The notes under the pieces were generated by a model. That model did no database searches and was not told the DNA's origin. It saw nothing but the letters and a program-made list of their open reading frames with translations. This document shows, piece after piece, positions 9,383-63,585 of a stretch of 64,000 nucleotides of DNA; position 1 is the first letter of the stretch; each line of letters begins with the position of its first letter. Location: NCBI GenBank assembly GCA_965215195.1, contig CBDCDC010000002.1:2016001-2080000 (forward strand), in the 5' to 3' direction. A program made the position numbers and the translations under genes. This stretch comes from Candidatus Latescibacterota bacterium (GTDB lineage: Bacteria; Latescibacterota; UBA2968; UBA8231).

Positions 9383-9617
9383 GAAGCGGTCTGAAAATTC
9401 CGCGAACCGTCCCTTGTGTGCAGCAAACAATCTAGGAGCGAGGGCGGCTCGCCCTCAAAAAACGCCCCATCCGAAGGCGTCTCGCCCTCGAAAAACGCCC
9501 CATCCGAGGGCCTCTCGCCCTCGAAAAACGCTCCCTCCGAGGGCCGCTTGACCGCTACTCAACGCGGTCCGACAGGGGTTTGTCACGCCTAAAGGCGCGG
9601 TGAAGCAGACGGCTTCT
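9382..9617 (+). mobile_element. MITE-like repeat, family A copy 1
   Basis: Ends AGAAGCGGTCTG...CAGACGGCTTCT; three internal 33-bp units containing the GAGGGCGnnnCGCCCTC hairpin; homologous copies at 19779, 36048 and 63474. Confidence 0.8.
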
Positions 9618-19778: not shown

Positions 19779-19955
19779 AAACCCCCGGCGGACCGCGTTG
19801 AGTAGCGGTCAAGCGGCCCTCGGATGGAGCGTTTTTCGAGGGCGAGACGCCCGCGATCCTAGGCGGATGGCGCGTTTTGCGAGGGCGAGACGCCCTCGAT
19901 CCTCGATTGTTTGCTGCACACAAGGGACGATACCCGGAACTTTCAGACCGCTTCT
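19779..19955 (-). mobile_element. MITE-like repeat, family A copy 2 (distal end truncated)
   Basis: Reverse strand begins AGAAGCGGTCTGAAAG and contains two GAGGGCGTCTCGCCCTC-type units. Confidence 0.8.
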
Positions 19956-21132
19956 AAGGCAGGGCCTCGAGAAGGCGATCGATATCCTCGTGGTTGTTGT
20001 ACACCGAGGGTGAGAGGCGCATCTTGTTGCCGAAACGCATCGCCACCTGAACATTGGCACTCCTGCAACTGGCCAAGACCGCTTCGGGGTGTGGAGCTAC
20101 GAAGGAGAGTATGGGGCTTTCGTTCCCCTGCGGCGTGATCGATTTGTACCCCCTCTGCGGCAACTCCTCCTGCAGGCGATCGGTCAGGTCTCTCGCGTGG
20201 TTGCGGATTCTGTCGACTCCGAGGCGCAGGATGTACTGCAGGCTCTCCTGGGCGCACACGACTCCTTCGTACGAGGGGTAACTGACCTCGTAGGCACCGA
20301 CTCCGGTCGGGGATGAAAACGATATCTCCTCTCTGGCCGAATCGGGCTCTTCCACCCAGGGGGGATAGTTGAGTGTCACACCACCCGTGGGCTGAGACGG
20401 TTTGAGTACGTCGAGCTGCAGATCGGAGCGAACGTACAGAAACCCAAACCCTTTGACGCCCATCAGCCACTTGAACGTCGAACAAGCCGCAAAGTCGATG
20501 CCCATCGCCTTGACGTCGATCGGAACACCGCCCGCAGCTTGCATGATATCGACATACAGATACGCGCCGTTGTCGTGAGCCAGCTTGCTCAGCGCCGCGA
20601 CATCTGCGACATACCCATTGACGTTTGACACCAATGCCACCGAGATCAGCCGGGTGTTGCCATCGACCGCGTCTTCCATGGCGGCCATGTCGATTTGCCA
20701 GTTGCGATGTGTCGCCAATACTGGCGACAGACTGCTCTTGACGATCCGCACATCGAGACCTTGCTGCTCGCGAAACTTGTAATTGTATATGCAGGGGTTG
20801 AAATTCAGATCCGACATCACCACATTGCCGCCCGCCAGATGATCCCGCAAGCCGTTGAGAATATTGCTCTCCGATTCCACCGTGCTGCGCGCAAAGGCGA
20901 TTTCTCCGGGATCGGCGTTGATGAGCCGGGCAAATAGGGCCTTGGCCTCGGCTCGCGGCGGTGCCCAGGCCGGCCACCACGGCTCCCCCACTTCGTGCGC
21001 GACCCAATCGACGTACCGGTGCAGGGCCGCCACCGAATGTACACTGATCGGATGCGACGAGGCGTTGTCGAAGTACGCCATGGTCCGCGCGCGCGGGAAG
21101 TCTTCGCGCACTCTCTCGAAAAGATCTGTCAT
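19954..21132 (-). CDS. Aminotransferase class V / cysteine desulfurase-like PLP enzyme
   Basis: YFDNAS, VDIMQAAG, STFKWLMG (PLP lysine), RLSPSVYN. Confidence 0.88.
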   Translation of the reverse strand: MTDLFERVREDFPRARTMAYFDNASSHPISVHSVAALHRYVDWVAHEVGEPWWPAWAPPRAEAKALFARLINADPGEIAFARSTVESESNILNGLRDHLAGGNVVMSDLNFNPCIYNYKFREQQGLDVRIVKSSLSPVLATHRNWQIDMAAMEDAVDGNTRLISVALVSNVNGYVADVAALSKLAHDNGAYLYVDIMQAAGGVPIDVKAMGIDFAACSTFKWLMGVKGFGFLYVRSDLQLDVLKPSQPTGGVTLNYPPWVEEPDSAREEISFSSPTGVGAYEVSYPSYEGVVCAQESLQYILRLGVDRIRNHARDLTDRLQEELPQRGYKSITPQGNESPILSFVAPHPEAVLASCRSANVQVAMRFGNKMRLSPSVYNNHEDIDRLLEALP

Positions 21133-21173
21133 ATCTGGTATCCTCGGTATGAAACCTGCGTTATACTCATAAT

Positions 21174-21342
21174 CTGATGTTACGCATGGGCATCTGGGTA
21201 TCAGATGCTTTGACTCCGCTTCGCTGCGCTCAGCATGACGCGGAGAAGCAGCAAACTAGCATTTGTCATGCTGAGCGTAGCGCTTCACCGCGCCTTTAGG
21301 CGTGACAGCATCCCATACCTAGGGGCCTGTGCCTAACATCAG
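21174..21342. mobile_element. MITE family B with 13-bp TIR and 7-bp target duplication, carrying a REP-like pair
   Basis: CTGATGTTACGCA...TGCCTAACATCAG flanked on both sides by TCATAAT; internal cgctgcgctcagcatgac / gtcatgctgagcgtagcg inverted pair. Confidence 0.82.
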
Positions 21343-21379
21343 TCATAATGTTGTTTTTTATTACCAGCATCTACGGCGG

Positions 21380-21955
21380 CTACAGATCCTTGTACCAAGT
21401 CAGTTGCACCTCGTCTAGGCCCTCGGTACGGTAGGCGTAGAGGTGGACTTGACCGAGCTTGGCACCCATGCGGGCGTAGAAGCGGCAGGCGGGCACGTTG
21501 ATGTTTTGGGTCTCGATCTTGAGCTGGGTGCAGCCCTGCTGCTTGGCGCAGGTCTCGGCGCGTTGAAAGAGCGCCCTGCCCACGCCTCGTCCTTGATATC
21601 CGGGCCGCACGCGGATGTCCCAGAGGCCGGCTAGATCTTCGCGCCCTTCACAGTAGTCTAAGCCCTCTCCGTGAAAGGCGACAATAGCCCCGCCGATGCG
21701 CTCCTGCCCCCTATATGCGGCGAGGACAATCCACCGCGAGAGGTCCCATGTTCTTCGGGTCCAGCGTTCCGGGCCGCCGAAGTGGTCGTAATTTTTGACG
21801 TAGGGAGGATCGACGGGTTCTTCGACCAGCCGGATTCCCCCCAAGCCATTGGCGACGAGTTCGATGCGAAAGCGGCTTTTTACTTCAAGCGCGATGGGCA
21901 CCCGGCCGTATTCGGACAGGACGTCGAGGCTTTCTTTTTCGATGCGAAAATCCAT
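21380..21955 (-). CDS. GNAT acetyltransferase (streptothricin acetyltransferase-like)
   Basis: DIRVRPGYQGRGVGRAL, IETQNINVPACRFY. Confidence 0.85.
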   Translation of the reverse strand: MDFRIEKESLDVLSEYGRVPIALEVKSRFRIELVANGLGGIRLVEEPVDPPYVKNYDHFGGPERWTRRTWDLSRWIVLAAYRGQERIGGAIVAFHGEGLDYCEGREDLAGLWDIRVRPGYQGRGVGRALFQRAETCAKQQGCTQLKIETQNINVPACRFYARMGAKLGQVHLYAYRTEGLDEVQLTWYKDL

Positions 21956-33145: not shown

Positions 33146-36049
33146 ATGTTACGGTTATCTCGATTACTTCTCGTATCTCATCTTTTTGTTATCACCTCTG
33201 TTTCAGTATCTGCCCAGCTCACCATTGAGGGCACCGTTACTGACGAACGAGGTGAGGGTCTGCCTGGTGCCAATGTCATTGTGGTTGGAACGACACTGGG
33301 TACGGCCGCTGATGCCGAGGGCCATTTTACGCTATTGCTGCCGGAACCAGAAGAAGCGACCCTGCTAGAGGCGCGTTCTGTGGGCTATAAATCAGCCAGA
33401 CAAGTTATTCGCCGCGACAACGGTTTGGCAAAAGTACGTTTCGCGCTCACAGTGGATGCACTGCAATTTGATGAAATCGTCGTCACCGGTGTTTCAGTTG
33501 CCGCCAGCAAAAAGCAATTGGGCAATGCCATTTCCACGGTTACTGAGTTGAGCTCTACCGGGGCCACGTCCCTCGACAAGGCACTGACTGGTAAATTTTC
33601 CGGGGCCTTAATTCAGCAAAATTCGGGCAAGCCGGCCGGTGGGACGACCATTCGTTTGCGCGGGACCAGTACGGTTCTCGGCGCGGCCGATCCGCTCTAT
33701 GTCGTGGATGGTGTCATTGTGAGCAATGATTCGCCCGAACTCATCTTACTCGGCGGCGGGGCGCAAAACCGGCTCGTCGATCTAAATCCCAACGATGTAG
33801 AGCGAGTTGAGGTAGTGAAGGGTGCCGCTGCCGCTGCCCTTTACGGCTCGCGTGCCAACAATGGCGTCGTGCAGGTATTCACCAAGCGTGGCTCACAGGG
33901 CAAGCCGCGGATTACCTATACGTCTCGTCTTTCAACGGCAACTGTCCGCAAAACACTAGATGTAAATAGGGCCACCGTAGACAACAGCGGGAATAAGAAT
34001 CCCGATGGCTCCGACGTGCAGCGTTTTGATCATCAGGACTTCATCTTTAGACGCGCCGCCGGAACGGAGCAGTACTTGTCGGTTGCGGGTGGCTCTGGAA
34101 ATACTCGTTATTTTGCCTCTGGTTCCTACCTCGCTGATGAAGGCGTGGTGGAAAATACCTCGTTTCGGCGGATCAGTGGACGGACCCGTATCGACCAAGA
34201 TTTGTCGGGTTGGGCTACCCTGTCTATGGGTGGGAATTTCATATTTAGCGAAAGCGATGACATTCCCAACGGCGGATTAAATTCAAACTATGGTGCTCTG
34301 ACAGGTTTTATTTTTGGCCCTAATACATACGATCCCACGCCCGATGCATTGGGTGTTTACCCAAGCGATGGAGTCCTCGCCAATCCATTAGAGGTCGTCG
34401 AGCGATATGATTTTAATCAAGAGGTCACCCGCTATATTGGAAATGCACAGTTAACCGTAGCTCCGCTATCTGGCTTGAGTATTGACTATACTTTGGGAGT
34501 CGATTCCTACGATCAAACGGCCCTAGCCTTTATACCGGCCGGCACATCCGCACCGGGCTTGGCAAATGGTCTTTCTCGAAGGGGTGTGTTCGACTTCTTA
34601 CAACTCAATAATGATGTCAATATAAGCTACCAGCGCAGCATGTCCTCTCAGGTACAGTCAACCACCCTTGTCGGCGGGACGCTACAGTACGAAAAAGGAG
34701 AAAACTTCAGTGCCGAAGCCAAGGATCTAAGTCCCGTTGCAGAAACCGTAGCAAGCGGTGCGACTGTGGTCGCCGGCGAGTTTAGAAGTGAGCGAGCCAT
34801 TTATGGTGTATTTGCCCAGCAGACCGTTGGGATTGCCAACCGATTTTTTTTCACAGGCGCTGCTCGCGTCGACGCCTCTTCAGTATACGACGCGGATAAC
34901 CGCTGGCAATTTTATCCAAAGGCGAGTGCTTCATATCTCATTTCAGAGGCCGGCTTCTGGCAAAATAGCGCACTGCAAAACATTCTTGCGGCTTGCAAGT
35001 TGCGAGCTGCTATAGGAACTTCGGGTGGTCAGACGGCGATTGGCGCGTACGACCGCTTCACCAACTACAATGCCTCCTCTTATGACGGCAACCCCGGGTT
35101 GGTCCCGAGCACTCAGATCGGCGGGGCGATCAAACCCGAAAGGCAGCGAGAAATAGAAGTAGGTGCGGATTTTAGTCTCCTATCCAATCGCCTCGGGCTG
35201 GAACTGACATACTACGATCAGCACATCGACGACTTGTTGTTATTCCGCACGTTGTCGCCGTCCACAGGTCACTTGCGGATCTTGCAGAATGTAGGTGCGA
35301 TGGATAACGCCGGGCTGGAACTTCTCGTCCGTGCGATTCCGCTTGAACGTCCTGCTCTGCGCTGGGAATCGACCTTCACTTATTTGGCTAACAAAAATAA
35401 CGTCAGTGGAATCGAGGGCGAGCGGTTGATCATACCAAATTCGTTTAGCCAAGTGTCAGCCATCAACGGGGAACCACTCGGAGTTTTCTTCAGCACGGCA
35501 TTTGAACGCGACGACAATGGGAATATCGCACTCGATGCAGACGCGCTCCCGCTTCGAGCGGCTGAGCGCAAAATTATTGGCGACCCCAACCCGGACTTTA
35601 CCGCTTCACTTATCAACGAGGTTACAGTGGGTCGGAACTGGTCATTGCGCGCTCAATTAGACGCCATCGTAGGGGGCGATGTATTTAACTTTACCCGCCG
35701 CTTGGCCGCTGCGGGATCGTTCGGCGTTTTGACGGATTATGAACGCGAGTTAAATGGCGAACTCCCTGCTGGCTATAATTCGCGGGTCTTCCGAATTTTT
35801 GAGCACTGGGTCGAGGATGGCTCCTTTGTGAAGTTGCGCGAACTGTCGGCGTCTTATCTATGGCAGCTAGGGAAGGCGAATAGTATTCGATTTAGCCTAG
35901 TTGGACGCAATTTGTTTTCCATAGATGACTACAGCGGGTACGATCCAGAAACCAACGTCGCGGGACAGCGCACAGCAGTGCGCGGATTTGATTTTGTCGA
36001 AGTGCCAATTCCACGTAGTTTTTCATTCAGTGTAAGCCTTAACTACTAG
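33146..36049 (+). CDS. SusC/RagA-family TonB-dependent receptor
   Basis: N-terminal carboxypeptidase-like domain, PLYVVDGV, EVVKGAAAAALYGSRANNGV, EDGSFVKLRE, YSGYDPE. Confidence 0.93.
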   Translation: MLRLSRLLLVSHLFVITSVSVSAQLTIEGTVTDERGEGLPGANVIVVGTTLGTAADAEGHFTLLLPEPEEATLLEARSVGYKSARQVIRRDNGLAKVRFALTVDALQFDEIVVTGVSVAASKKQLGNAISTVTELSSTGATSLDKALTGKFSGALIQQNSGKPAGGTTIRLRGTSTVLGAADPLYVVDGVIVSNDSPELILLGGGAQNRLVDLNPNDVERVEVVKGAAAAALYGSRANNGVVQVFTKRGSQGKPRITYTSRLSTATVRKTLDVNRATVDNSGNKNPDGSDVQRFDHQDFIFRRAAGTEQYLSVAGGSGNTRYFASGSYLADEGVVENTSFRRISGRTRIDQDLSGWATLSMGGNFIFSESDDIPNGGLNSNYGALTGFIFGPNTYDPTPDALGVYPSDGVLANPLEVVERYDFNQEVTRYIGNAQLTVAPLSGLSIDYTLGVDSYDQTALAFIPAGTSAPGLANGLSRRGVFDFLQLNNDVNISYQRSMSSQVQSTTLVGGTLQYEKGENFSAEAKDLSPVAETVASGATVVAGEFRSERAIYGVFAQQTVGIANRFFFTGAARVDASSVYDADNRWQFYPKASASYLISEAGFWQNSALQNILAACKLRAAIGTSGGQTAIGAYDRFTNYNASSYDGNPGLVPSTQIGGAIKPERQREIEVGADFSLLSNRLGLELTYYDQHIDDLLLFRTLSPSTGHLRILQNVGAMDNAGLELLVRAIPLERPALRWESTFTYLANKNNVSGIEGERLIIPNSFSQVSAINGEPLGVFFSTAFERDDNGNIALDADALPLRAAERKIIGDPNPDFTASLINEVTVGRNWSLRAQLDAIVGGDVFNFTRRLAAAGSFGVLTDYERELNGELPAGYNSRVFRIFEHWVEDGSFVKLRELSASYLWQLGKANSIRFSLVGRNLFSIDDYSGYDPETNVAGQRTAVRGFDFVEVPIPRSFSFSVSLNY

Positions 36050-36267
36050 AAGCGGTCTGAAAATTCCGCGAACCGTCCCTTGTGTGCAGCAAACAATCGA
36101 GGATCGAGGGCGTCTCGCCCTAGGGTCAGTTTATGCCGTTAGACAGCTCCCCATCGGTGCAGCAAACAATCGAGGATCGAGGGCGTCTCGCCCTCGAAAA
36201 ACGCGCCATCCGAGAGCCTCTCAACCGCTACTCAGCGCGGTCCGCCGAGGGTTTGCAGACCGCTTCT
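36048..36267 (+). mobile_element. MITE-like repeat, family A copy 3 (complete, with internal duplication)
   Basis: AGAAGCGGTCTG...CAGACCGCTTCT perfect TIR; 38-bp internal direct repeat at 36084-36121 and 36157-36194. Confidence 0.85.
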
Positions 36268-63473: not shown

Positions 63474-63585
63474 AGAAACCGTCGGGCTGCTTCGGCGTCC
63501 GGCGTTTTTCGCGGGCGAGACGCCCTCAATCCCAGCGGCTCGGAGTCAAGGCCGAGAGCGAAACCTTCGTTTTCAGATGGCTTCT
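63474..63585 (-). mobile_element. Divergent family-A MITE-like element
   Basis: Reverse strand AGAAGCCATCTGAAAA...GAGGGCGTCTCGCCC...GACGGTTTCT. Confidence 0.6.

Follow-up and report, generated by a model that had tools for sequence, protein, structure and literature searches.

What kind of sequence recurs, letter for letter, inside two unrelated repeats of one bacterial genome, and does it move by itself? The question is raised by a window of 64,000 nucleotides (the whole stretch of DNA analysed here) from a Candidatus Latescibacterota bacterium with a genome of 6.13 Mb, referred to as G000. As an earlier sequence-only reading had reported, a 26-mer is present exactly at 9581-9606 (+) and, reverse-complemented, at 21282-21307 (-); at up to three mismatches the window has these two matches and 100 shuffles have none. 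That reading took the 26-mer to be an ultra-short unit inserted independently in the two hosts, with a net gain of 23 bp and no long target duplication. The comparisons below reveal a mobile hairpin of 24 nt that is real, is confined to one genus and replaces a base at its junction. Its mobility can be held with near certainty; the proposals for how it moves are far more tentative.

The unit, its junctions and its target

The boundaries of the unit, from G to G, are set by pairs of filled and empty alleles at orthologous sites and give a length of 24 nt, with the flanking T and C of the 26-mer belonging to the target; the shared insert proposed earlier stands, shortened by its two outer letters. 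Orthologous empty alleles are available for 20 of the 21 sites tested. The unit replaces one T at C2:4075499, C2:3776677, C2:1714802 and C2:3558588 of G000 and stands in place of a C at L209; at other sites it is added 5′ of a retained T, for a gain of 24, or the junction involves one or two other bases. The net +23 deduced for both window hosts is borne out, as 24 nt standing for one target base and not as a clean 23-nt insertion, and no target duplication is present there or at the filled/empty sites. Of 20 sites, 14 have a T at the join (p 1.8e-6) and 11 have TC, a dinucleotide with a genome-wide share of 6.1% (p 4.7e-9), and by reading of the alignments the replaced T is part of TC at all six repeat hosts, these being an IS5-type copy, three palindrome positions, the MITE end and the unit's own TTCA loop, the last with a deduced empty form. 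The IS5-type copy is filled and its 12 sister copies are empty. With respect to GC skew, which is patchy, the strand of insertion shows no clear bias (26/40, p 0.08).

Table. Features in the window, numbered from its first letter, and sites of a second hairpin insert in G000
Feature	Position	Strand	Remarks
Micro-element, copy 1	9582..9605	+	24 nt; ends from filled/empty pairs elsewhere
Host 1, family-A MITE-like repeat	9383..9616	+	terminal inverted repeats, the right one interrupted
Micro-element, copy 2	21283..21306	-	replaces one T of a REP-type arm; empty arm elsewhere
Host 2, cassette	21174..21342		terminal inverted repeats and a pair of CGTC-type palindromes
Family-A copy without the element	36049..36266	+	G at 36255, T in other subfamilies
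Second 24-nt hairpin, sites in G000	C2: 1583637, 2470445, 3038961, 3510853, 4173470, 4046225, 2144291, 2647972, 906803, 736180

Copy 1 has a type I restriction gene on one side and an unannotated frame on the other. The filled MITE end in which it sits is common to 34 G000 copies and to MITEs of relatives that have other bodies, and copy 1 most likely arrived by hitch-hiking in the family-A MITE. Independent insertion at different sites, as originally supposed, is supported for the unit at large by its 74 near copies and 20 sites with empty alleles. That the family-A end is interrupted at 9581 is confirmed, but the copy near 36249, which had been taken for the uninterrupted form, is open to another interpretation. 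At 36255 it reads G, whereas T is found in other MITE subfamilies and in the left inverted repeat, and it may therefore be a loss product (a clean 23-nt loss) rather than an ancestral empty site; alternatively it may be a pre-insertion variant. A MITE tree that took in 16 of 32 copies (length filter) has the filled and the G-type empty copies as the two sides of one branch (94/93), an unrooted arrangement that does not give the order of events. Two more family-A copies in the window, at 19779-19956 (-) and 63490-63584 (-), lack the right end at or just before the element position, and five family-A-like ends within 26 kb of G000 (C2:2146050-2171465) are rearranged, with the right half of the element inverted.

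Copy 2 interrupts a REP-like arm, as had been read from the partner arm, and the empty form of the arm is present at C2:1836238 of G000 and at L071. In other copies the corresponding place in the arm holds other stem variants, so it is either a repeated target or an old, diverged insertion. The surrounding cassette is flanked by a 7-nt direct repeat and is missing at the orthologous place in 13 of 13 aligned relatives (15 loci given), two of which carry other DNA there; its palindrome type also flanks Ssn-size GIY-YIG genes in L346, L349 and L350. An adapter or assembly artefact is excluded at 21282: contigs of runs X2 and X4 (possibly the source of the present DNA) span 20800-21800 whole with no difference, and X7, a run of a different study, contributes a 197-nt contig that covers 21215-21367, again with no difference. 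At the 9581 site the repeat interrupts the contigs, and no listed one crosses the stretch.

Copies in the genome, in the genus and in genes

The 26-mer is not confined to the two copies from which it was recognized. G000 has 18 exact 26-mers, and the 22-nt core is present 26 times exactly and 74 times at up to three mismatches, a threshold at which five control patterns (reversed, complemented and three shuffled) have no match in G000. Almost half of the 74 (34, the copy at 9581 among them) sit within the right-hand inverted repeat of the family-A MITE, two REP-type palindromes account for 5 and 6, another 6 lie inside another copy of the 24-nt element, and 23 are at other locations. Apart from the MITE end the hosts comprise REP-type palindromes, one IS copy, genes and earlier copies of the unit, with copies nesting in one another. 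A hot spot 5 kb before the window (L001, G000 C2:2007000-2011000) holds at least seven copies, two of them nested and three in frame; relatives have further inserts there.

A one-genome-per-species scan yielded 48 loci, in records titled Latescibacterota (45) or Gemmatimonadota (3). The element is present in 16 of 24 congeners and in none of 16 other genomes, and a stem-free pattern matches 22 of the 31 genomes of the genus, so that related genomes do carry it, and none of 137 others in the phylum. G000, G018, G005 (35 pattern matches), G001 and G022 are rich in the element, and the remaining genomes of the genus have 0-4 matches. Of 12 loci from a metagenome scan, three carry host flanks of the genus and the other nine are read as chance coding matches. 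The exact 22-nt core within a phage baseplate J gene at two loci of a viral scan (L179, L180) is likewise taken as chance, and baseplate J homologues align across it in one piece (alignment gaps not inspected).

Within open frames of 125-1256 codons the reading frame is kept at 14 of 14 clear sites, nine of them filled in G000 and five in relatives, with gains of 24, of 48 for a nested pair, or of 21 where a loop shorter by 2 nt goes together with replacement of the T. Outside gene interiors the gain is 23 at 10 of 14 sites (one-sided Fisher about 8e-5, a hand calculation in which the coding status of C2:3776677 is not settled), and frameshifting insertions are therefore probably purged by selection inside genes. 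The count leaves aside the ambiguous sites L219, L199, L184 and the L032 site, the last with +23 in three relatives and +24 in five. Genes hit include those for a sensor kinase-like and a permease-like protein, both named by eye from sequence. The unit is a working mutagen: proteins are lengthened by 7-8 residues, the ends of genes are changed, and other mobile elements have their termini disrupted.

The hairpin in comparison with known repeats

The minus strand of the unit has a CTTC tag, a 2-nt spacer, a 6-bp stem with a 4-nt TTNA loop, and a terminal AC; for copy 1 this is the opposite strand, with AC as spacer and TTTA as loop. The stem covaries, as paired types recur among 144 distinct copies (GCG/CGC 16, CTG/CAG 9, TCG/CGA 5) and Watson-Crick cells number 61 of 99 versus a shuffle mean of 45.5 (1 of 5000, in a test that ignores relatedness). 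The commonest stem mismatch is a G-T pair, and that on the minus strand only; the folding z-scores of minus and plus strands are -4.0 versus -1.1 as RNA and -1.9 versus -1.0 as DNA. The loop is TTNA in 137 of the 144 distinct copies, in a scan that allowed one mismatch only, and 26 of 33 variant loops differ at the third base. Within the tag the first base is conserved in 64 of 74 copies and each of the following three in 71-73. TTNA loops are possibly just stable DNA loops, which counts against a REP-type reading.

Tiny hairpin inserts are already a known kind, and the 24-mer works like an SDR or a stand-alone REP, departing from GTAG and CGTC REPs, PATEs and MITEs in the features that define them. 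The small dispersed repeats (SDRs) of cyanobacteria are about 20 nt in size (PMC2884548), dispersed and proposed to be mobile, with no known enzyme (PMC2884548, PMC4390886). The 24-mer is likewise very short and scattered, and its empty sites show mobility; unlike SDRs it is from another phylum, has a TC target and usually costs one target base. SDR5 is described as inserting precisely at a short target within HIP1 (PMC4390886), whereas the 24-mer targets share only T or TC.

In its layout the 24-mer is like the group-3 REP of Marinomonas, REP-Mb, associated with RAYT/TnpA-REP: a 4-nt tag, a 2-nt spacer, a 5-bp stem and a TTNA loop whose third base alone is free (PMC8266576). The cut dinucleotide of REP-Mb follows tag positions 4 and 3, or 4 and 2, and this rule applied to CTTC by both position pairs predicts G|A, which is TC at the targets. 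The product ends do not follow from it, as a simple G|A cut-and-join accounts for neither the constant terminal C of the folding strand nor the lost base. Moreover, the group-3 tag is GTAG where the 24-mer has CTTC, and the 24-mer occurs as single or nested units, not as inverted doublets (REPIN/BIME), has many copies in genes, loses a base, and has no RAYT gene adjoining it or in G000.

CGTC REPs, with a CGTC tag and an 8-9-bp stem in PMC3733652, and the related Ssn motif share with the 24-mer a GTC before the stem on one strand, intragenic copies and, according to PMC3733652 and PMC11893778, no dedicated transposase known. The 24-mer differs in its stem of 5-6 bp, a 7-nt tail, no head-to-head dimers and a better fold on the other strand; a C precedes its GTC in 2 of 144 copies, and CGTC repeats are among the sequences that it invades. 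The transposase-free PATEs and SMRs of Haloquadratum have comparable, IS605-like hairpins, and SMRs, like the 24-mer, use other mobile elements as targets and leave no duplication, but the smallest PATE that PMC3119063 gives is 52 bp and the smallest SMR 80 bp, and the 24-mer is one hairpin with no terminal inverted repeat. IS200/IS605 elements insert 3′ of a fixed 4-5-nt target and keep all target bases (PMC6006769), a rule that the 24-mer sites do not follow. As for MITEs, characterized by terminal inverted repeats, target duplication and a size of 70-300 bp in PMC3733652, the unit with its 24 nt and no duplication is, as had been argued, too small for a classical one. A literature search, with most subscription papers outside its scope, returned no description of the 24-mer or of single-base replacement.

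For SDRs as for CGTC-type REPs, the way in which units of about 20 nt travel is still an open question. The 24-mer family makes it testable with oligonucleotides, since its ends are exact, its filled/empty pairs many, its target defined and its tolerated variants known, and since the CTTC tag predicts something specific, cleavage at G|A.

Candidate movers and further hairpin inserts

The mechanism that we favour, tentatively and for the whole of it with somewhat less than an even chance, is that the 24-nt hairpin travels as single-stranded DNA, nicked and joined in trans by an HUH/Y1 enzyme of the RAYT/IS200 kind. The substrate recognized would be the strand CTTC-AC-stem-TTNA-stem-AC, with the tag selecting GA (TC on the opposite strand) in the fashion of group-3 REPs. 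Host nucleases would trim one base off the free target end in most events, giving +23, and leave it untrimmed in others, giving +24; trimming of a free 3′ end by host nucleases is named as a source of variation in PMC3333891. Events that shift the frame inside genes would be removed by selection, and the enzyme may since have been lost, or may visit on another element. If moved by a single-strand cut-and-join enzyme, the unit would be among the smallest mobile DNAs, and if an enzyme does exchange a single base for a short hairpin, its chemistry would be new. A second unrelated 24-mer, which replaces one base in the element's loop, by reading misfits the tag rule.

The search for such an enzyme covered the Y1, RT, DUF559, GIY-YIG and Y2 families in 31 genomes of the genus. 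The families are present in 15, 15, 14, 31 (mostly of UvrC size) and 6 of the 31 genomes, respectively, and none of them tracks the five high-copy genomes. No Y1 gene is present in G000, G018 or G022 and only fragments are in G005 and G001; the intact Y1 genes are in genomes with few element copies. RAYT, IS200, Y2/IS91 and Ssn genes were sought in G000 with none found, and when 25 Y1 and Ssn-size proteins were compared with G000 by tblastn, no match extended over the catalytic motif. The Y1, RT, DUF559 and GIY-YIG loci fetched contain no element-like sequence at up to five mismatches, and 10 Ssn-size loci contain no copy of the element. All listed Ssn-size GIY-YIG and intact IS200-type genes come from genomes in which copies are few or absent, the reverse of what is expected for a mover. 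An IS200-type element of G002 has an end hairpin near-identical to the 24-mer (L283), a resemblance only, and the end at L298 likewise has an IS200/IS605-end-like hairpin.

A longer parent element had been suggested as something to look for, and none with both ends of the unit was seen. A 21-copy element sharing the first 14 letters proved to be an IS of about 0.9 kb whose coding sequence matches by chance, and split copies are nested inserts, most of the 68 paired rows being chance and set aside. That IS (e.g. C1:551501, C2:33464) has two subfamilies and mosaic copies, and one decayed copy carries the micro-element. In four relatives, large proteins of 900-1100+ aa (L285, L287, L290, L302) have an internal Y1/HUH domain that appears to be inserted in frame; the G000 counterpart (C2:1801000-1803500) is without that part.

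It is conceivable, if rather doubtful, that tag-bearing single 24-nt hairpins that replace one base and are codon-sized, which would let some of them persist within genes, make up a distinct minimal class of mobile DNA, with a cellular or unnamed enzyme shared by unrelated hairpin families as the mover; two such 24-mers in G000 follow one rule. Less probable, and on balance unlikely, is that there is no dedicated transposase and host repair copies or ligates the hairpin into stalled forks or one-base gaps, such as the excision of uracil or of a damaged T might leave. Several observations would suit host repair: nearly all +23 sites have lost a T (a C at L209), the junctions shift by one or two bases, a single rule holds for both unrelated 24-mers, several targets start like the element's own end (L199, C2:608109, the L032 site), and the families searched gave no dedicated enzyme. 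Host repair leaves unexplained the fixed ends and tag, the TTNA loops, the compensatory stems, the TC preference and the confinement to one genus.

Target-primed reverse transcription of a short hairpin RNA, starting from a nick 5′ of the target T and performed in trans by a group II intron or retron enzyme, is more unlikely again. The minus strand folds cleanly as RNA, its G-U pair included, both junctions vary, and G000 has two RT genes (C2:200788 and C2:298818, by eye group II intron-like and retron-like), but G005 with its 35 matches has no RT match and RTs are equally common in low-copy genomes. Nor does any RT locus fetched have the element beside it, a truncated series is not seen, and no Rfam family scores above gathering for L001 or L241.

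That the unit is a shrunken CGTC-type palindrome spread via nicks of the Ssn (GIY-YIG) single-strand nuclease is improbable: its plus strand does begin with GTC ahead of the stem, two hosts are CGTC-type palindromes, one of which matches the NTS motif of PMC11893778, and Ssn-size genes exist in the genus, but the listed ones are from genomes poor in or free of the element, the stem and the base before GTC differ as set out above, and SsnA in that paper cuts upstream of its motif, whereas the inserts lie within stems. An artefact, or a constant piece of a small number of host repeats, with no movement of its own, is suggested by the 34 copies in one MITE end and by another genome in which most exact copies share one REP host, but is refuted as a full account by unique sites with empty orthologues, in-frame gene copies, nesting and independent contigs, and, very improbable as such, holds for the hitch-hiking fraction only. 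The weight beyond these named mechanisms goes to enzymes of other, unknown kinds.

The genus has other hairpin inserts. The second, unrelated 24-nt hairpin (Table) has a GAAA/TTTC loop and for the most part occupies the loop of the first element. It too stands in for a single base, the net size being +23 in four clear cases, with +22 and +25 in others. A minimum of three further short hairpin inserts, 24-27 nt long and in frame, are present at L113, L114, L118-L121 and at sites of the C2:354369 and C2:3242596 types in G000. In the linker of a sensor kinase-like gene, different species have different inserts at nearly one place.
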